64,000 nt of DNA, from positions 1 to 64,000 of the IMG/VR virus record IMGVR_UViG_2921643360_000001. One strand, 5' to 3'. Below, one piece after another: positions 405-42,432 of the stretch. The DNA comes from a virus. The notes below the pieces were generated by a model. The model was not told where the DNA came from and searched no databases. It saw only the letters and a list, made by a program, of their open reading frames with translations. Positions within the stretch are counted from its first letter, which is position 1. Each line of letters begins with the position of its first letter. The position numbers and the translations under genes are program-made.

Positions 405-475
405 GTTCCGCAAACAACCAAATATTGACGGCCTGAAAGCCTTGCCCAACCGGATGTCTTTTATTTTTGCGGAAC
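405..475. repeat. 10-bp perfect inverted repeat GTTCCGCAAA / TTTGCGGAAC in an AT-rich tract just downstream of int
   Basis: Arms at 405..414 and 466..475. This is the lowest-GC stretch of the left junction, so it is a candidate att arm, IHF region or int 3' structure. Confidence 0.35.
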
Positions 476-480
476 ACCTT

Positions 481-1554
481 TCAGCGCGTCGGGCCCACTT
501 TTTCACCTCGGCGCTTCCGAACATAGTGCTCGGTCATGGTAACGGATTCGTGCCCAAGCTGCTTCTGTGCTTCTCGAATGTCGCCCGATGAATCCGCCTT
601 GTCTGTCGCCGCTTTCGCGCGCAAATCGCGTAACTGAAACGAGTTGTCGTCCTTGATGCCCGCCGCCCTTCGGGCGTTCTTGAAGCGCATCTGCATCGCG
701 TTCAGGGTCATCCGTTGGCCCTTCTCGTTGACCACCAGCGCTGTGCTCACGACCTTGTACGACGCCTTGCGGGCTTTGATCCGCTCGATGGCCGTTTTCA
801 GTTCTCCAGCGATCTCCATGCGAATTTTCTTGCCAGTCTTGCCCTGGTCGATCAGAAGGAACCCGTCGCGGATATCTCGCTCGTCAAAATTCAGCGTGTC
901 CTGCGGGCGCTGGCCGGCCAGGTAAGCCAAGTCCATAAAATCCTTGGTCGGCTGGTCGGCCTTCTCATACACGCGCGCAAACAGGTCATCTTCAACGTAG
1001 ACGTCGCGCCCTTCCACCGTGTTCCTCTTGACACCCGTACACGGGTTGGCCGCCTTAGTCAGACCAACTGCGCGAGCCTTGTTGAATATATGGCTGAACA
1101 GCGAGAGTTCCCTGTTAGCGCGCGCATGACCGGCGTTAGGTGGGGCTGCCCTCCCCTTGCTGGCGAACCACTTGACAGACTTCTCATAGCGCCAGCGCAG
1201 ATATGCACTGACATGCATCGGCTCGATCTCGTCGAGGGGTGTGTCGTCTTCGAAGTATTCTTTGAGATTCGCCAACTCCTCCAAGTTGTCTGACTGAGTT
1301 CGCGGCTTCTTGCGGGGCAATTCCTCCCGCAGATAGACGGTCACGGCGTCCCGAAATGTGCTCCCGGCATCTTTCGGCGTATCGGCCTGCTCGATCTCAG
1401 CCCAGCGCGTGACGGCCTTCCGGTAGTCCGTCCCAAGCGACTCCTCGCGTCGAGGTTTGCCGCCGTGGTCGTAGTAATAGTAGATCGTCTCGCCGCGGTG
1501 ACGGGCGCGCATCCCTGGCGGCAAATGAGTGTTGCGCGTCGGCTTCCTGCCCAT
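481..1554 (-). CDS. int: Tyrosine recombinase / phage integrase
   Basis: 357 aa. The C-terminus 'FQLRDLRAKAAT...LGHESVTMTEHYV' fits the R..H-x-x-R..Y catalytic region. It is the terminal gene of the prophage. Confidence 0.9.
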   Translation of the reverse strand: MGRKPTRNTHLPPGMRARHRGETIYYYYDHGGKPRREESLGTDYRKAVTRWAEIEQADTPKDAGSTFRDAVTVYLREELPRKKPRTQSDNLEELANLKEYFEDDTPLDEIEPMHVSAYLRWRYEKSVKWFASKGRAAPPNAGHARANRELSLFSHIFNKARAVGLTKAANPCTGVKRNTVEGRDVYVEDDLFARVYEKADQPTKDFMDLAYLAGQRPQDTLNFDERDIRDGFLLIDQGKTGKKIRMEIAGELKTAIERIKARKASYKVVSTALVVNEKGQRMTLNAMQMRFKNARRAAGIKDDNSFQLRDLRAKAATDKADSSGDIREAQKQLGHESVTMTEHYVRKRRGEKVGPTR

Positions 1555-2146: not shown

Positions 2147-2461
2147 TCAATCCTCGTATCGCTTGTGTCGCTTCGCCTTTGGCGCCCGTCGCCCTCGCAC
2201 TAATGGCCTCGTCTTGATGCAGTAATAAGACTCGGCGCATTTAAAGAAGGCGATGAAGTCAGCGCAGAACGAGTTGCGACGGGCATAGCGGATCGGTGGC
2301 AGGCGTTCGCTGTGGACAGGCCCGAAGCTGCCGACACCCGGAACACGGTCCAGCACCTTCAGTTGCGCCGCGCTGATGCCAAGCACTCGACACAGACGAA
2401 GACCGCCGACGAACTTGTGCTTGAACCGCAGGAAGCGGTAGATTTGACGATGTGTCTTCAT
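2147..2461 (-). CDS. Hypothetical basic protein
   Basis: Its start overlaps the stop of the upstream ORF (2458). No motif recognised. Confidence 0.45.
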   Translation of the reverse strand: MKTHRQIYRFLRFKHKFVGGLRLCRVLGISAAQLKVLDRVPGVGSFGPVHSERLPPIRYARRNSFCADFIAFFKCAESYYCIKTRPLVRGRRAPKAKRHKRYED

Positions 2462-2727
2462 GCTGGCGCCTCCAAACCTATCGCCCTGCGAACTTGACTC
2501 GTACAGTTCGGGCCGATGTGTTTCGCTATTACGAATAGCGCCTTGAATGTCATTCCTATGGCGTCCTCAAACCTCTCTGTTGAAACATGGCTAGGACAAT
2601 CGGCGCCTTCTAGCGCCTCTAGCGCCCATATGATTGCCGCCTCAGTCCTCGGTCGGTCGCCATTGTTCTCCAGCGCCCATTGCAATTCAGCTTTCAATAC
2701 TTCGAGTTCGGTCATAGTTCGCTCCAT
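2458..2727 (-). CDS. Hypothetical protein
   Basis: Packed into the leftward operon and reads as a protein-like acidic helical sequence. Confidence 0.5.
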   Translation of the reverse strand: MERTMTELEVLKAELQWALENNGDRPRTEAAIIWALEALEGADCPSHVSTERFEDAIGMTFKALFVIAKHIGPNCTSQVRRAIGLEAPA

Positions 2728-2900
2728 CGCACCGCGTCATAACGTCCCGTGAAAACACCCCATGCGAGCCTCAAGCGTCGGCGCAGGCAGATTCCCTTGA
2801 ATCCCATCGGCCTAGCCATGTGCCATATGCCTAGGCGTCCGCATGCCGACATATCCCAATCTTTCAGTTCTCGCGCCCAGAACAGGTTCGGCGTGTTCAT
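2712..2900 (-). CDS. Hypothetical small protein
   Basis: Fills the gap between 2727 and 2904 and starts 3 nt after the upstream stop. Confidence 0.4.
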   Translation of the reverse strand: MNTPNLFWARELKDWDMSACGRLGIWHMARPMGFKGICLRRRLRLAWGVFTGRYDAVRWSEL

Positions 2901-2903
2901 TCC

Positions 2904-3269
2904 TCATCTCCCGAATCCAGCGGACAATGCCGCCCACTCTTCCCCGGCTCGCCATCGCGTAGCTGCGGGCATTGCGAATGGGCGCACTCGCCATCCCGGC
3001 CCGCTGCGCATCCGGTAAGTTTGACGCTCAGCTTTCACTGGCTCGGGGCCATTCGGGCCTTGGCGCAACTCGCGGATAGCCTCGGCATATTCCGTCGCGC
3101 TAAAGTCATGACCGATGCGCTTCTCGCAAGCCTTCGCCGCCTCCTCCAGCGCACCCCGCCTCGCCGCCTCCATCACCTCCCCCGCCACTTCCGCCCAATC
3201 CACGATCTGACCGTTGCAATACTTGATCGCGTGATCGAAGAGGATGTCGCCTGCTTCTGCGTTGGTCAT
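2904..3269 (-). CDS. Hypothetical protein
   Basis: ATGG/4-nt overlap with 3266..3766. Protein-like composition. Confidence 0.55.
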   Translation of the reverse strand: MTNAEAGDILFDHAIKYCNGQIVDWAEVAGEVMEAARRGALEEAAKACEKRIGHDFSATEYAEAIRELRQGPNGPEPVKAERQTYRMRSGPGWRVRPFAMPAATRWRAGEEWAALSAGFGR

Positions 3270-20912: not shown

Positions 20913-21361
20913 TGTCAAACCGAGAAAAACCATCCATGAAAACCGTGATCGAGTTCATCGGGAAATTCGGCCCGCTAGAGACGGATCAACTAAAGCTAAT
21001 GCTGCCAATGTCGGAAACCGCCATCTACAAGGCGTGCAAGAGCGGAGTCGACGAGGGATATCTCAGGGTAGACCGCGCCAAAAAGAAAGGCGTATGCGGA
21101 CGCCGGCATTGCATCTACACGCGCACGGACAAGCCTTATATCGCACCGCAGGTTTGCCACAAGACGATCATTAATCGCATCTACAGGGAGCGAATGCTGA
21201 CTATGGATAAAGTTCCAGATAACAGGGTTGTCCCATTCAGGCATTGGATGGATTCGGCGCTTTTCGGCTCTTACCCGACGCCTATTGAGCCGCAGATCAA
21301 GGAAGGTCGCATCTACAGACAGCCAATGAACGTTCGCGATGACGAGGAGCTTGCAGCATGA
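20909..21361 (+). CDS. Hypothetical phage protein (possible wHTH)
   Basis: 150 aa, with a 4-nt overlap to the neighbour. Confidence 0.55.
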   Translation: MMSNREKPSMKTVIEFIGKFGPLETDQLKLMLPMSETAIYKACKSGVDEGYLRVDRAKKKGVCGRRHCIYTRTDKPYIAPQVCHKTIINRIYRERMLTMDKVPDNRVVPFRHWMDSALFGSYPTPIEPQIKEGRIYRQPMNVRDDEELAA

Positions 21362-21582
21362 ACATCCGCGATATAGCAGGCATATCCAGCCAGCAGGAAC
21401 TGTACGAACTGGCGTCGAACTTCAATGTTCACGTCGGCAGCATGGACAAGCTGATCCGATTCGCCGGCGAACTCCAAAAGCGCGCCCTAGCCGACCACGC
21501 AAAGCGCGAGCTGGCGATGGATCGACTTGTTGAGGATGCGGAAGAGCTCGGACTTTATAACGAACCGGAGAAAGCAGCGTGA
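21358..21582 (+). CDS. Hypothetical small protein
   Basis: 74 aa, part of the overlap chain. Confidence 0.5.
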   Translation: MNIRDIAGISSQQELYELASNFNVHVGSMDKLIRFAGELQKRALADHAKRELAMDRLVEDAEELGLYNEPEKAA

Positions 21583-22199
21583 AGAAACTGATTCTCAAGA
21601 AACTGTTGCGGGTGCATTCCAACGCCTGCTCTACGCCCTACTACCACCTGTCCGGCTACATGCTACGCGACTGGATTCTCGGTTACCGCAGCCCGGATCG
21701 AAACGCCGATAACCCAGCATGGAAAGCGGGCTTTAGCCCGAAGTCGTCGGCGCTCTATCGCTGGATCTGCCGCAACGTCGCTATCCGCGCTCACACGATC
21801 CTGCGCAGCGACAACGACCGTCACTTGCACGACCATCCGTCGTGGTCGCTGTCGATCGTGCTGTCGGGCGGGTATTGGGAAGTGTGCGAGCCGACCGAAT
21901 GGGCGAAGCAATTCGGAGCAACGTACCGCCGAATCGTCGACGGACTCGACCGGGGAATGATCGACAACGAAGACAGTTACGAACTCGACTACGTTGCACG
22001 GTTCGGAATCTTCTGGCGCGGACCCGGCGCGATCGTCCTGCGTCGCGCTACTGACTTCCATCGCCTGATCCTGCCACGTGGCACGGTCGCCAAGTCAATA
22101 TTCGTCATGGGCAAGAAAACCAACAGTTGGGGCTTCCTGACGCCTAACGGCAAGGTCTACTGGCGCACGTATCTCGGTCTCGACAAGGAACAAGCATGA
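21579..22199 (+). CDS. Hypothetical protein with 'HLHDHP' metal-site-like motif
   Basis: 206 aa. 'DRHLHDHPSWSLSIVLSGGYWE' resembles a cupin-type His cluster. Weak call. Confidence 0.5.
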   Translation: MKKLILKKLLRVHSNACSTPYYHLSGYMLRDWILGYRSPDRNADNPAWKAGFSPKSSALYRWICRNVAIRAHTILRSDNDRHLHDHPSWSLSIVLSGGYWEVCEPTEWAKQFGATYRRIVDGLDRGMIDNEDSYELDYVARFGIFWRGPGAIVLRRATDFHRLILPRGTVAKSIFVMGKKTNSWGFLTPNGKVYWRTYLGLDKEQA

Positions 22200-23266
22200 C
22201 TCTCGAACACTCGCAGACAGGCGGAATCGGAGACGTCAATTCCAGCGAGCGCGGCTCCGGAGCGAGATACAACACGGGCAAGGTTGCTATCGAGTTGATC
22301 CCTCTGCGTCTGATCGCGGAACAACTTGAACACGCCACGTCGGAAGACGATCCGCAAAACACGCTTATCGGCGCCCTGTGGAATCTCGCGTTGTTTCAGG
22401 AAGGCGGCGAGGCGCATTACCTGCGCGCGGCAATCGAAAACGTCGGATCGGCATGGGACGAATGCGCGGCGGTATTCGACTACGGGCGGAAGAAATATAG
22501 CAAGCGAGGTGATTGCACATGCAGTGCGGGCGATGCGGTACGACTGAACCTGAGCGGTTCTATCTATACACCTACAAAGGCGCAAACATCCGAAAGTTGC
22601 TCAAGGGATTTTGCAAGCCTTGCTACGACAAAGACCTCAAAGAGCGGAATCCAGGGTATCGGAAGCGACAAACCGAAAACCATCGAAAGTGGCTCGCAAA
22701 CCCTGAGAACAGAGAGCGAGCGCGCGCATCTGAACGGAAGCGATCTGCAAAGCGAAAGCTGGACCCAAATTACAAGGAGCAATCCAAGCTCTACCGAATC
22801 AAGCAGGAATACGGACTCACGCCTGAGCAGTACGACACCCTCATCGCGGCAGGATGCGCAATCTGCGGAAGCTTCGATCGATTGCATGTCGACCATTGCC
22901 ACGACAAAGGACACGTCAGAGCAGCGTTATGCCATTCCTGCAACATTGGCCTTGGATTTGTCGAAAGGCCTAACGGCTGGCTTGAGCGCGCACTCGAATA
23001 CCTGCGGCGTACATCAGACGCCGGGGCACACGGGTAACTGGAACTGGGCCAAGGGAATGGCGTGGAGCGTTCCCCTCGCCTGCGCTGCCCGCCATCTGAT
23101 CTTCGGCATGATGGCCGGTGAAGAACTCGACCCTGAATCGGGCCTGCCCCATCGCGGTCACTTCCTCTGCAATCTCGTGATGCTGCTGACGTTCATGCGG
23201 ACCTATCCGGAGGGAGATGATCGTCCGTCGCAATGGTTGGCTACGCCGACACAGGAAGCCGCATGA
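22196..23266 (+). CDS. dATP/dGTP-diphosphohydrolase-like (DUF5664) protein carrying a 178-codon in-frame insertion
   Basis: The flanks 'NTGKVAIELIP...YGRKKY' and 'GNWNWAKGMAWS...ARHL...DPESGLPHRGHFLCNLVMLL' match the family. The middle is S/T-rich shadow translation of the HNH gene. Confidence 0.6.
   Translation: MTLEHSQTGGIGDVNSSERGSGARYNTGKVAIELIPLRLIAEQLEHATSEDDPQNTLIGALWNLALFQEGGEAHYLRAAIENVGSAWDECAAVFDYGRKKYSKRGDCTCSAGDAVRLNLSGSIYTPTKAQTSESCSRDFASLATTKTSKSGIQGIGSDKPKTIESGSQTLRTESERAHLNGSDLQSESWTQITRSNPSSTESSRNTDSRLSSTTPSSRQDAQSAEASIDCMSTIATTKDTSEQRYAIPATLALDLSKGLTAGLSAHSNTCGVHQTPGHTGNWNWAKGMAWSVPLACAARHLIFGMMAGEELDPESGLPHRGHFLCNLVMLLTFMRTYPEGDDRPSQWLATPTQEAA
22499..23032 (+). mobile_element. 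534-bp homing-endonuclease insertion between the Y and G codons of the host KYG-NW motif
   Basis: Boundaries inferred from where the DUF5664-like sequence stops and resumes. Confidence 0.55.
22519..23037 (+). CDS. Endonuclease VII-type HNH homing endonuclease
   Basis: 'LHVDHCHDKGHVRAALCHSCNIGLG' is the Endo VII/HNH core, with an N-terminal CxxC..CxxC. SD AGGTG lies 7 nt upstream. The ORF is in the -1 frame relative to the host ORF. Confidence 0.8.
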   Translation: MQCGRCGTTEPERFYLYTYKGANIRKLLKGFCKPCYDKDLKERNPGYRKRQTENHRKWLANPENRERARASERKRSAKRKLDPNYKEQSKLYRIKQEYGLTPEQYDTLIAAGCAICGSFDRLHVDHCHDKGHVRAALCHSCNIGLGFVERPNGWLERALEYLRRTSDAGAHG

Positions 23267-23406
23267 AACATTCCCTCATTCTTTTCCTGCTCCTTCTGCC
23301 GATCAGCCTTTCTCTCGCCACACGCCGCATCGGTGTGCGCAACTGGCAATACTGGGCGGTCGTTTTCACTGCGGCGATCATGTTTGAGGCGGGGAGATAC
23401 GTATGA
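23263..23406 (+). CDS. 47-aa membrane peptide
   Basis: ATGA-coupled. Reads MKHSLILFLLLLPISLSLATRRIGVRNWQYWAVVFTAAIMFEAGRYV. Confidence 0.45.
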   Translation: MKHSLILFLLLLPISLSLATRRIGVRNWQYWAVVFTAAIMFEAGRYV

Positions 23407-23747
23407 CCGACGAAGGCGAGATCAATATTTTTCGGGCGCTAGACTTCATCCGAGATCAAGCGCCCGCCTACGCCCAAGCCAAGGCCCAACGAGTCTACCT
23501 GGAGAATTTCAGGAAGAGCAAGAAGGCGCTGCTGATGCGCGCCGCGGAACTCAAGGGCCACAAGACGGCGGCCATCCAAGAGCGCGAGGCGTACGCAGAC
23601 GACGGCTATATCGAGATCCTTGCGGCACTCCAAGCGGCAACCGAGGAAGAAGAACGGCTGCGCTGGATGATCGTCGCGGCAGAGGCAAAGATTGAATGCT
23701 GGAGAACGATCGAGGCGAACCGGCGTGCGGAGGCGAGGACTCTATGA
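23403..23747 (+). CDS. Hypothetical helical phage protein
   Basis: 114 aa, part of the overlap chain. Confidence 0.55.
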   Translation: MTDEGEINIFRALDFIRDQAPAYAQAKAQRVYLENFRKSKKALLMRAAELKGHKTAAIQEREAYADDGYIEILAALQAATEEEERLRWMIVAAEAKIECWRTIEANRRAEARTL

Positions 23748-23881
23748 GCACCGCCACCTACTACTCAATCCTCGCCACGATCTGCCTCACGCGAGTGGTG
23801 CCTAGGTGGGCTTGCATCGCCAGCGGGATCGTCTATCTCGGGCTTGCGGTTGCTCTTGACATGGGGTGGTTTGCACGATGA
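23744..23881 (+). CDS. 45-aa membrane peptide
   Basis: ATG overlaps the upstream TGA. Reads MSTATYYSILATICLTRVVPRWACIASGIVYLGLAVALDMGWFAR. Confidence 0.4.
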   Translation: MSTATYYSILATICLTRVVPRWACIASGIVYLGLAVALDMGWFAR

Positions 23882-24489
23882 ACCGTCTCCCCAGAAAAAA
23901 GAAGTGCGCAGCTTGCAAGACGGTTTTCGAACCAGCGCGCTCACTCCAGAAAGTGTGTAGCCCCAAGTGTGCCGCCGATTTTGCAGCGAAACAGAAAGCG
24001 CAGAAGTTGGCGAGGGCGAATCGGGAGGAGAGGAAGTCCCTCGCAGAGCGTAAAGCCAAGCTCAAGACTCGCCGCGAGTGGATTGCCGAGGCTCAGGCGG
24101 CATTTAACGCATACGTGCGTGAGCGAGATTACGGGAAGCCATGCATAAGTTGCGGCATCCCGCCGAGGGAAGCTTTCGGCGGCGCTGTTGATTGCGGTCA
24201 TTATCGAAGTGTTGGCAGCGCTTCTCAGCATCGCTTCAATTTAAAAAATTGCGCTGCACAATGTGTCAAATGCAATAGATATTTAGGATCTAATGCCGTC
24301 GAAATGAGGAAAGGACTTATAATTAAGATTGGTCTAGAAGAATTGGAAAATCTAGAGTCAGACCAGACCATCAAGAAGTTCAACATCGAATACCTCGCTC
24401 GCATCAAGCGAGTCTTCCTCAAGAAAGCGCGGCGAGCTAAGGCCCGGAGAAATCATGAGCATAACGAAATGGAATATGCAGCCGGGTGA
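23878..24489 (+). CDS. ninG: NinG/Rap-like recombination protein
   Basis: N-terminal 'KKCAACKTVFEP...VCSPKC' and central 'CISCG...DCGHYRSVG...NCAAQCVKCNRYLGSN' fit lambda NinG. Confidence 0.75.
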   Translation: MNRLPRKKKCAACKTVFEPARSLQKVCSPKCAADFAAKQKAQKLARANREERKSLAERKAKLKTRREWIAEAQAAFNAYVRERDYGKPCISCGIPPREAFGGAVDCGHYRSVGSASQHRFNLKNCAAQCVKCNRYLGSNAVEMRKGLIIKIGLEELENLESDQTIKKFNIEYLARIKRVFLKKARRAKARRNHEHNEMEYAAG

Positions 24490-40905: not shown

Positions 40906-42432
40906 ATGACCCAAATTGTCCAATACGGACAGGTCAACACGACAGCGCTGATCGTTCCAGACCTGATCGTGCAGATCATTGCGCCCCAGGTCGCACAGCT
41001 TAACGGCGTGCCCACGAACGTAGCCGGTTTTGTTGGCACGGCGACGTGGGGCCCGGTTAATTCGCCGACCATCGTCGGCAGCATGGCGGATTACGCGCGC
41101 AACTTCGGCGCAATCCAGAACCGCCTGTACGACATGGGCACGGCAGTCGCTGCCGCTGTCCTGCAAGGCGCGAACAACTTCCGCTGTGTCCGCGTGACGG
41201 ACGGCACGGATACGGCTGCTTCGATCCTGGTTCAGTCGACCTGCATCACGTTCACATCGAAGTACACGGGCACGCTCGGTAACTCGACGCAAGTGCAGAT
41301 TGCCACCGGGTCCGCAGCGAACACCTTCAAAGCGATCGTTTCGATGCCCGGTCAAACGCCGGAAGTGTTCGACAACATCGGCGGTACGGCTAACGCGCTG
41401 TGGGTCAACATGGCTGCAGCGATCAACGGCGGCCAGGTCGGTGCGCGCGGCCCCTCGCAACTGATCGTTGCAACCGCTGGCGCAGGCACGACGGCGCCGA
41501 CGCCTGCGACCTACACGCTGGCAAGCGGTACGGATGGCGCAACCACGATCACGGGCTCGGTTCTCATCGGCCAGGACACGCTTCCTCGCAAGGGCATGTA
41601 CGCACTTCGCGGCACGGGCGCATCGGTTGCCGCTCTCGTCGACTGCTCGGACACGACGACGTTCTCAACGCAGGTCTCGTATGGCCTGTCCGAGGGCACG
41701 TACATGATCGGCGTCTCGCCGGTTGGCGACACGATCACCAACGCCGTGACGGTCAAGGCAACGGCCGGCATCGATTCGTATGCGTTCAAGTACATGTTCG
41801 GCGACTGGGTCTACTTCCTCGATCCCGTTAATGGCGGCACGCGACTGATCTCGCCGCAGGGTTACGTGGTCGGCGTGCTGGCGAACCTCGCTCCGCAAAA
41901 CTCGTCGTTGAACAAGCAACTGTATGGCGTGGTCGGCACGCAGAAGTCGTATCAGAACCAGCAGTACTCGAGCGCGGAGCTTCAAACGCTGGCTCAGGCC
42001 GGTATCGACGTCATCACGAACCCGATCCCAGCTGGCAATCAGTTCGGCTGCCGCATCGGTCACAACAGTTCGTCGGACAGCACCCGCAACGGCGACAACT
42101 ACACGCGGATGACCAATTACCTCGCGGCCACGACGGCGCAGGGCATGGGCATCTACGACGGGCGCCTGCAATCGGTGCAGCCGACCGATCCGCTGCGTCG
42201 TGCAGTCAAGGCCACGCTGGACAACTTCTATCTGAACCTGCAGCAGCAAGGCCAGATCGACGACTTCACGGTCCAGTGCGACCTGAACAACAACCCGGCA
42301 TCGCGCATCGCGCTTGGCTACCTGCAAGCCGATGTCCGCGTGCGCTACCTAGCTGTCGCCGAAAAGATCCTGATCAACCAGGAAGGCGGCCAGTCCGTGA
42401 CGATCTCGCGCCAGCAAGTCGCTTCGTTCTAA
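40906..42432 (+). CDS. Tail sheath protein
   Basis: 508 aa, the first gene of the tail module and followed by the tube. The N-terminus is typical of Mu/P2-like sheaths. Confidence 0.7.
   Translation: MTQIVQYGQVNTTALIVPDLIVQIIAPQVAQLNGVPTNVAGFVGTATWGPVNSPTIVGSMADYARNFGAIQNRLYDMGTAVAAAVLQGANNFRCVRVTDGTDTAASILVQSTCITFTSKYTGTLGNSTQVQIATGSAANTFKAIVSMPGQTPEVFDNIGGTANALWVNMAAAINGGQVGARGPSQLIVATAGAGTTAPTPATYTLASGTDGATTITGSVLIGQDTLPRKGMYALRGTGASVAALVDCSDTTTFSTQVSYGLSEGTYMIGVSPVGDTITNAVTVKATAGIDSYAFKYMFGDWVYFLDPVNGGTRLISPQGYVVGVLANLAPQNSSLNKQLYGVVGTQKSYQNQQYSSAELQTLAQAGIDVITNPIPAGNQFGCRIGHNSSSDSTRNGDNYTRMTNYLAATTAQGMGIYDGRLQSVQPTDPLRRAVKATLDNFYLNLQQQGQIDDFTVQCDLNNNPASRIALGYLQADVRVRYLAVAEKILINQEGGQSVTISRQQVASF

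Follow-up and report, generated by a model that had tools for sequence, protein, structure and literature searches.

A hidden endonuclease VII-type HNH gene within an open prophage DUF5664 gene: a probable homing cassette of the translated-through kind

The stretch of DNA analysed here (the window: 64,000 nucleotides (nt), positions 1 to 64,000 of the IMG/VR virus record IMGVR_UViG_2921643360_000001) stems from a Paraburkholderia prophage and contains a gene for a deoxynucleoside triphosphate (dNTP) pyrophosphohydrolase of the DUF5664/dGTP_diPhyd_N type that is interrupted by additional DNA without losing its reading frame. In a different frame, the inserted DNA encodes a complete endonuclease VII (Endo VII)-type HNH protein. 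We consider it probable, at roughly 0.7, that this element is a translated-through homing-endonuclease cassette of the kind first described as the ShiLan domain and that the insert is tolerated in the host protein as an overprinted loop and not spliced out. According to this proposal, a minimal mobile unit made up of a Shine-Dalgarno (SD) sequence, an open reading frame (ORF) for the nuclease and a stop codon would have been inserted at the K-Y-x-x-W-N-W motif, a helix-loop junction of the DUF5664 enzyme. The nuclease would be produced by internal initiation at the ATG at position 22519, in frame +2 relative to the host gene, and ribosomes translating the host gene would read through the whole insert, the length of which is a multiple of three and which is free of stop codons. 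The resulting host protein would bear a hydrophilic, disordered 'shadow' loop of about 178 residues between the intact halves of a helical fold, and nothing would be spliced. The nuclease would cleave insert-free DUF5664 alleles at the insertion site, and recombinational repair would then copy the cassette into them (homing). Attention had been drawn to the locus by an earlier note that a model had made from the letters of the sequence; its observation of a nuclease nested in an open host gene is confirmed here and its interpretation is supported.

Both ends of the interrupted frame had been described as DUF5664-like in the earlier note, and profile comparisons bear this out. The uncut translation of 356 residues matches PF18909 (dGTP_diPhyd_N) with an E-value of 3.6e-18 and 65.8 bits (curated cut-off 27 bits), the alignment covering its C-terminal part only. 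When the 534 nt following the Tyr codon at 22496-22498 are deleted, the values improve to 5.7e-23 and 81.2 bits, and the product shows 92% identity, along its full length (100%), with P0001, a metagenomic protein of 178 residues that is uninterrupted and encoded at locus L001. The gene for P0001 is exactly 534 nt shorter than the host gene, such that the previously given size of 534 nt or 178 codons is exact. In total, 1456 DUF5664 homologues were detected. None of the 67 that were aligned carries the insert. The alignment of these sequences together with that from the window contains 31 invariant columns, and the window retains every family-invariant residue. At the insertion site, uninterrupted genes read AAA-TAC-GCC-GAG-TTC-AAT-TGG in the DNA alignment with L001 (insert-free site in L001: ..GGGAGGCGTAAATACGCCGAGTTCAATTGGGCAAAG..) and the motif of the family is K-Y-x-x-[W/F]-N-W. 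The location of the insert within a conserved motif thus stands as noted before, while the wording of this motif as KYG-NW has to be given up. In a similar way, the borders originally proposed are valid but cannot be fixed exactly, because the insert can slide by 6 nt, i.e. two codons, up to a variant that ends in TAAC (Table 1).

The assignment of the nested ORF as an Endo VII-type HNH protein in another frame holds as well. Its residues 95-165 match PF02945 (Endonuclease_7) with 2.7e-16 and 59.7 bits (cut-off 23.6), phrog_2914 is matched with 3e-32, and the complete protein is identical to NCBI protein BZM27_05910 from Paraburkholderia steynii. A CxxC...D-H...CxxC-N motif is present and is located on a beta-beta-alpha element of the modelled nuclease. 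The N-terminal region contains four further cysteines in a zinc-ribbon-like arrangement which may bind metal. The likely start codon is the ATG at 22519, which is 15-21 nt away from the 5' border of the insert, and an alternative TTG start is found at 22513. The nuclease gene indeed has an SD sequence of its own, which reads GAGGTGAT instead of the AGGTG originally proposed; it ends 5 nt before the ATG and reads R-G-D in the host frame. At the equivalent place, the related locus L005 features GAGGAG. At its other end, the stop codon TAA (23035-23037) spans the host codons GGT-AAC, as had been read before, and is followed by a C.

Table 1. Features of the interrupted DUF5664 gene, its nested nuclease and their surroundings (positions refer to the window).
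Feature	Position	Strand	Basis or remark
Insertion, 534 nt = 178 host codons, 0 host-frame stops	22499..23032 (sliding up to 6 nt, to 22505..23038)	+	absent from 67/67 aligned homologues
Interrupted DUF5664/dGTP_diPhyd_N-type dNTP pyrophosphohydrolase gene	22196..23266	+	one stop-free frame, 356 codons
N-terminal host segment, residues 1-101, ends ..FDYGRKKY	22196..22498	+	whole-length alignment to uninterrupted homologues
C-terminal host segment, G-N-WNWAKGM... to stop	23033..23266	+	aligns to uninterrupted homologues
Nested Endo VII-type HNH homing-endonuclease ORF, 172 aa + TAA, host frame +2	22519..23037	+	PF02945, phrog_2914
SD sequence of nested ORF, GAGGTGAT	22506..22513	+	sequence reading
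Four-cysteine zinc-ribbon-like region, nuclease N-terminus (C3, C6, C32, C35)	22525..22623	+	invariant in four-sequence alignment A3
HNH catalytic core, CAICGSFDRLHVDHCHDKGHVRAALCHSCN	22855..22944	+	C113, C116, D125, H126, H128, C138, C141, N142 invariant
DUF5664-nested relatives: L002, L005, L007, L031, L040, L119, L122, L123, L124			host frame stop-free in each
Cysteine-dioxygenase-like gene, upstream	21579..22199	+	phrog_4786, 1.3e-30
Small hydrophobic ORF, MKHSLILFLLLLPISL.., downstream	23263..23406	+	starts at ATG overlapping host stop
NinG-like gene	23866..24489
Second, free-standing HNH gene, 269 aa	24455..25264	+	phrog_374, 6e-66; phrog_3377, 1e-60; Pfam none

The question of whether the host frame stays open by chance can be addressed at the locus itself and by comparison with its relatives. 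When codons within the HNH ORF were permuted synonymously, the probability of a stop-free host frame was 0.018; resampling of codons according to the usage of the genes in the window yielded 0.015. In agreement, 1.6% of windows of 172 codons are stop-free in the +1 frame when 17 long stop-free frames on the plus strand of the window are treated as genes. The single-locus probability falls to about 0.005 once the condition is included that the length be a multiple of three. Taken alone, frame openness in the window is suggestive. The earlier note had cautioned that openness as such is weak evidence in GC-rich DNA.

Nine further distinct sequences contain a gene for a homologue of the HNH protein that is nested within a DUF5664 gene, again at the KY/NW site (Table 1). 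The nearest nuclease homologues, P0122, P0123 and P0124 from loci L002, L005 and L007, are only 46-50% identical to the protein from the window. The other six sequences were added when 185 loci encoding nuclease relatives were screened with the DUF5664 profile. These six (L031, L040, L119, L122, L123 and L124) have a GC content of 33-39%, and in the one case for which identity to the HNH protein of the window was measured (L040) it amounts to 32%. Free-standing relatives at 20-40% GC contain 5.7 stops per 100 codons in the corresponding frame, and about ten host-frame stops would be expected in each of the AT-rich nested ORFs; the number observed is zero. In four of the five AT-rich nested sequences tested, the permutation probability is 0.002-0.03. 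Since six nested relatives are AT-rich, the caveat concerning GC-rich shadow frames is answered, and the decisive indication that the open frame is not a matter of chance therefore comes from comparative data and not from the single locus.

The arrangement is not restricted to DUF5664 genes. Of the HNH relatives, 146 are distinct, and 25 of these lie within a long open frame, which in each case is HNH frame +1. SNF2-like helicases (with two sites), a terminase and an intein of a terminase are represented among them, and at least 15 nested loci reside in host genes other than DUF5664. Across the HNH gene, the +1 frame is open in 34 of 148 loci, and the +2 frame in five of 148, all of which have a GC content of at least 0.58. 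Potential stops are about half as frequent in the +1 as in the +2 frame, and the fixed frame relation may arise from this difference together with shared ancestry of the cassettes. The nested nucleases group by host gene and site.

Substitution patterns provide information on which of the two overlapping frames is selected. In nine out of ten pairs of nested elements, including the near-identical pair L122/L124, differences are most frequent at position 3 of the HNH codons, followed by positions 1 and 2; in the exceptional pair, L002 and L005, positions 1 and 2 are swapped (66 and 70 differences). As position 3 of the HNH codons varies most, position 2 of the host codons is the most variable one. 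With the exception of the near-identical pair, for which both values are 0.99, the HNH frame surpasses the host frame in amino acid identity throughout (e.g. 0.49 vs 0.36 and 0.64 vs 0.47). The ratio of nonsynonymous to synonymous substitution rates (dN/dS) for the HNH frame is 0.2-0.44 where it could be computed. By these comparisons, the selected product of the insert is the nuclease, and the host frame is constrained there only to remain open. For the host exons, comparison of the window with uninterrupted L001 gives a dN/dS of 0.09 at a dS of 0.62. Taken separately, the N-terminal exon has a dN/dS of 0.056 (dN 0.038, DNA identity 91.8%) and the C-terminal exon one of 0.146 (dN 0.080). Among the invaded alleles L119, L122 and L123 the values for the exons are 0.11-0.23 at dS >1. 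Judged from these ratios, the host exons are still under purifying selection.

The peptide encoded by the insert in the host frame had been called rich in Ser and Thr, and these two residues indeed make up 33% of it; 15% of its residues are hydrophobic as compared to 30% in the flanks, and the search against Pfam gave no match. The GC content of the insert is 0.54 vs 0.59 in the flanks. An AlphaFold2 model of the host protein (356 residues, alignment of 68 sequences) predicts all-alpha flanks with values of the predicted local distance difference test (pLDDT) of 88-98. The N-terminal flank contains helices at residues 37-47, 55-68, 73-83 and 87-103, and the C-terminal flank, with a pLDDT of 91-97 at residues ~291-340, contains helices at 291-305 and 319-336. 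Residues 106-282 in the insert are predicted with a pLDDT below 50 and almost no secondary structure, apart from a lone four-residue helix (249-252). The insert is thus placed after helix 87-103 and before the NWNWAKGM loop and helix 291-305. For the HNH frame, AlphaFold2 reached a mean pLDDT of 81.7 from only six sequences, and the model features a beta hairpin at residues 14-27 and strands 122-126 and 133-138 followed by helix 139-144, which together form the beta-beta-alpha element (122-144).

It had been stated earlier that neither an intron nor an intein nor a split into two cistrons fits the arrangement, and we come to the same result. A cmscan search against Rfam over 21800-23700 yielded no group I intron and no other match at E<=10. 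The SD sequence and the ORF fill positions 22506..23037, so that no more than ~7 nt of the insert are left over on the 5' side and no more than 1 nt on the 3' side, which leaves no space for an intron core. Translation into introns is normally stopped early; here, the frame is kept open. An intein was rejected because no Hint or intein match was obtained for the host-frame peptide, which belongs to the less conserved frame and is predicted to be disordered. The junctions, with KY followed by SK.. at one end and ..GN followed by W at the other, are non-canonical for an intein. A faint likeness of CSAGDAV.. to intein block A is a shadow of the CxxC of the nuclease, and with inteins at these borders the exteins would gain residues that are absent from homologues. 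The same method is able to detect inteins, as one was found in the terminase of locus L153. Division into two cistrons is incompatible with the single continuous frame of 356 codons. Bypassing of the type known from T4 gene 60 was also dismissed, because no host-frame stop follows any take-off codon and the gap would have to be 534 nt, as was a -1 frameshift fusing the N-terminus of the host protein to the HNH protein, since a TGA is present in the HNH frame just before the HNH start. Finally, CxC..(C)TCG motifs recur in the host frame at both ends of the insert and were considered as a zinc 'clasp'. A clasp was not retained as the simplest reading: RGDCTC.. is a shadow of the SD sequence and ATG, and ..TCGVH one of the conserved [DE]-Y-L-R end of the nuclease.

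Homing as such would be in line with several observations. The insert is present in one and absent from the other of two alleles that are ~90% identical in DNA, hosts that have diverged strongly share one fixed insertion site, and the nearest free-standing relatives of the nuclease are encoded in L011 (8..361, 423..1028) and L095 (2140..2505, 2447..3001), where they directly follow uninterrupted DUF5664 genes. A free-standing homing endonuclease gene downstream of its intact target gene is a classic arrangement. L011 contains the nearest non-nested relative of the nuclease from the window, and a free-standing HNH gene beside an intact DUF5664 gene may represent the ancestral arrangement of the nested cassette. 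From these relations, homing by an active and site-specific nuclease appears plausible. The proposal further implies that the mature host protein would keep the loop and remain functional. Directly 3' of the insert (23033..23062), nonsynonymous differences between the window and L001 are denser, with GN/AE, W/F and A/K within nine codons, a pattern that a co-conversion tract derived from the donor could account for.

Several points weigh against a translated-through cassette in a functional enzyme. The insertion hits the most conserved motif of the family, where a loop of 178 residues might be expected to be harmful. The openness statistic for the window alone amounts to ~0.015-0.018, and the permutation test is weak in the GC-rich relatives (0.18-0.69). 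The dN/dS values for the exons of GC-rich invaded alleles are higher, namely 0.26, 0.30 and 0.74 (L002 vs L005) in the three computable comparisons. Low exon dN/dS could, moreover, stem in part from repeated re-invasion of functional alleles. Foldseek searches with both models against the PDB did not yield a significant match, Hpy99I reaching an E-value of 0.21 for the nuclease.

As an alternative, the host enzyme might be dead and its frame might stay open only for the flow of ribosomes, which would avoid Rho-type polarity and keep downstream coupling intact, the read-through polypeptide itself being non-functional. Coupling exists on both sides of the host ORF: its start overlaps the upstream stop in ATGA (22196-22199), and its stop overlaps the ATG at 23263; uninterrupted L001 has the same ATGA overlap at its stop. 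DUF5664 proteins form a dATP/dGTP pyrophosphohydrolase family with a role in nucleotide metabolism, for other members of which activity has been shown experimentally, and they serve an accessory rather than a core phage function (PMC12884076). We regard this explanation as unlikely, as both exons retain every family-invariant residue and as the dN/dS of the exons is low, 0.06-0.15 against the uninterrupted allele and 0.11-0.23 among the invaded alleles L119, L122 and L123. Stopping and restarting of translation would keep the coupling, too, and this is seen in none of the ten DUF5664-nested sequences. An accident is hardly credible, be it a recent damaging insertion whose length is by coincidence divisible by three and whose host frame lacks stops through GC-richness, or be it an error of assembly. 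The window, with 58% GC and many long shadow ORFs, and the single-locus probabilities given above leave some room for it, but the arrangement is repeated in the nine other DUF5664 sequences and in the loci with other host genes, down to 33% GC, and the HNH protein is identical to an independently annotated NCBI record.

It is also conceivable that the insert is removed by an unrecognised step, i.e. by atypical self-splicing or host-assisted RNA excision, by ribosomal bypass or by excision or cleavage at the protein level. With the borders originally proposed, the 5' exon ends with U and the insert with G, as in group I introns, a weak argument given seven possible border positions; a long disordered loop would be a plausible protease substrate, and an enzyme made up of two fragments is conceivable. 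We consider removal quite improbable all the same. Besides the blank Rfam search and the lack of space for an intron core, RNA excision would make selection for an open frame needless, yet this selection is strong. A take-off site of the T4 gene 60 type is missing in the absence of any stop codon, and the host-frame peptide is the less conserved one, is predicted to be disordered and has no Hint or intein match. The authors who described ShiLan likewise saw no signal for an intron or intein (PMC11855218). A variant in which the segment of ~178 residues is removed or cut without a conserved ribozyme or Hint domain and the open frame is needed only transiently, for example through host-factor-assisted RNA excision guided by the ends of the cassette or through protease- or nuclease-protein-assisted excision of the disordered loop, is highly improbable in our view. 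Of the two possibilities left by the earlier note, a tolerated overprinted loop or an unrecognised removal step, the tolerated loop is thus favoured, because selection for an open frame in all ten DUF5664-nested sequences would be pointless if the RNA were excised.

An arrangement with an out-of-frame HNH insertion was published in 2025 (PMC11855218; bioRxiv 10.1101/2025.01.02.630785). The ShiLan domain is a hidden out-of-frame HNH protein in a mycobacteriophage DNA methylase, and an insertion in Pacc40 gp60 was reported in the same study (Arsenault, Gosselin & Gogarten 2025, Genes 16:178, PMC11855218). In ShiLan, the third-frame HNH gene starts 18 nt into the insert, the insert ends with TAAC and the host frame is stop-free; an intron or intein remained undetected, and a loop was predicted for the insert (PMC11855218). 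Compared on architecture, the element in the window resembles ShiLan in that the insert is absent from close homologues, the host frame is open and neither an intron nor an intein is detectable, in the start at 15-21 nt into the insert and in a stop codon within the final TAAC that the host reads as ..T-AAC (Asn). Further common traits are a host-frame peptide predicted as an unstructured loop and free-standing relatives that adjoin uninvaded target genes. The two cases differ in the host gene, DUF5664 dNTP pyrophosphohydrolase vs methylase, and in the host, a Paraburkholderia prophage vs an actinophage. In addition, the window features a canonical SD sequence and an ATG, whereas ShiLan has a GTG start and no ribosome-binding site, and leaderless-type initiation has been proposed for it (PMC11855218). 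With mobE in nrdA of Aeromonas phage Aeh1 (PMC3045599) the element shares the presence of an intron- and intein-free homing endonuclease gene in a conserved phage gene of nucleotide metabolism, but there the host protein is reassembled from the products of two cistrons into which its gene has been split (PMC3045599), while the frame in the window is continuous. Endo VII-like nucleases in frame 3 within actinophage inteins have been presented in a 2025 preprint, and an out-of-frame nuclease in a dnaX intein in a 2026 preprint. These intein-borne cases, of which L153 is an example, have in common with the window that the nuclease is Endo VII-like and resides in frame 3, that the shadow peptide is an unstructured linker and that selection acts on the nuclease frame. 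In contrast, an intein excises the whole insert from the protein, and the cassette in the window lacks a surrounding splicing domain.

More distant parallels exist. Group I introns can carry HNH ORFs, e.g. those for I-HmuI and I-TslI. In phage lambda, Rz1 is an embedded out-of-frame gene within Rz that is neither mobile nor an insertion, both frames encoding selected proteins; what it has in common with the window is that a translated phage gene harbours, in a different frame, a second complete gene with a start of its own. HNH endonucleases of group I introns and the bypass in T4 gene 60 (bioRxiv 10.1101/2022.08.31.505936) pair a mobile nuclease with a means of limiting the harm done to the host gene, as proposed here, but the window has no ribozyme core, bypass signals or in-frame stop, and damage would be limited at the polypeptide and not at the RNA. 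In the DUF5664 literature we saw no report of a DUF5664 gene as host for such an element, though no search was aimed at that. The element in the window is thus not categorically new but joins the kind published in 2025, in a new host gene.

Introns, inteins and gene splitting are regarded as the three ways in which homing endonuclease genes persist in essential or conserved genes. The locus described here, together with its relatives, speaks for a fourth way that was not put forward until 2025, namely translation through the insert as a disordered loop, with the nuclease being produced from an overlapping frame. To this picture they add the DUF5664 dNTP pyrophosphohydrolases as a new family of host genes and a proteobacterial case in a prophage with a textbook SD sequence and ATG, which would readily explain how translation of the hidden nuclease is started. 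They also add AT-rich relatives that make a statistically strong case for selection of the open frame, and cassettes of the same family at helicase, terminase and intein sites with a constant frame relation. If the interrupted proteins are functional, the insertion sites would mark positions where enzymes may accept very large loops.

Gene callers annotate only the nuclease in such cases, and the host gene is lost or truncated. In public annotation of the genome from the window as well as of L002-L007, the nuclease and a short C-terminal DUF5664 fragment are called and the interrupted gene is not reported, and no exact record of the 356-residue host product as a called gene was found. As callers miss the interrupted host gene, such elements are probably under-reported in databases. 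A blastn comparison of the 3-kb region with phage genomes revealed no close relative. When the PDB was searched by sequence with the host protein lacking the insert, only spurious matches to EBNA1 were obtained.

Apart from the DUF5664 genes, SNF2/helicase-like ORFs contain nested HNH genes, with the host in frame +1, at two sites: L042, L062, L071, L073, L131, L137, L139 and L141 at site A and L107, L121, L130, L150, L158 and L063 at site B. The full-length ORFs comprise 645-684 codons, allowing for upstream read-through, and L141 and L063 are cut by contig ends; several of the helicase-site loci have a GC content of 33-45%. Nucleases from sites A and B are among each other's closest relatives, which suggests that the cassette may have moved between the two. 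In the large terminase subunit at L153 (1455..3899), a true intein (PF14890) is present, and its central linker corresponds to the shadow reading of an out-of-frame Endo VII-type HNH gene. The terminase at L145 (1374..3914) features a nested HNH gene between its ATPase and nuclease domains, without an intein.

In the neighbourhood of the host gene, which is translationally coupled on both flanks, a cysteine-dioxygenase-like gene is located upstream and a small hydrophobic ORF downstream (Table 1). Neither a promoter-like site nor an intragenic terminator was found within 21300-23800, and the minus-strand and other shadow ORFs of the region gave no match in Pfam. The second, free-standing HNH gene overlaps the 3' end of the NinG-like gene by 35 nt, and the prophage thus contains at least two HNH genes within 2.5 kb. 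In Sinorhizobium phage phiM6, a tblastn match (H39, 41084..41509) falls under the annotations 'endonuclease 7 superfamily protein' and 'putative DNA polymerase', and it may constitute another nested case.

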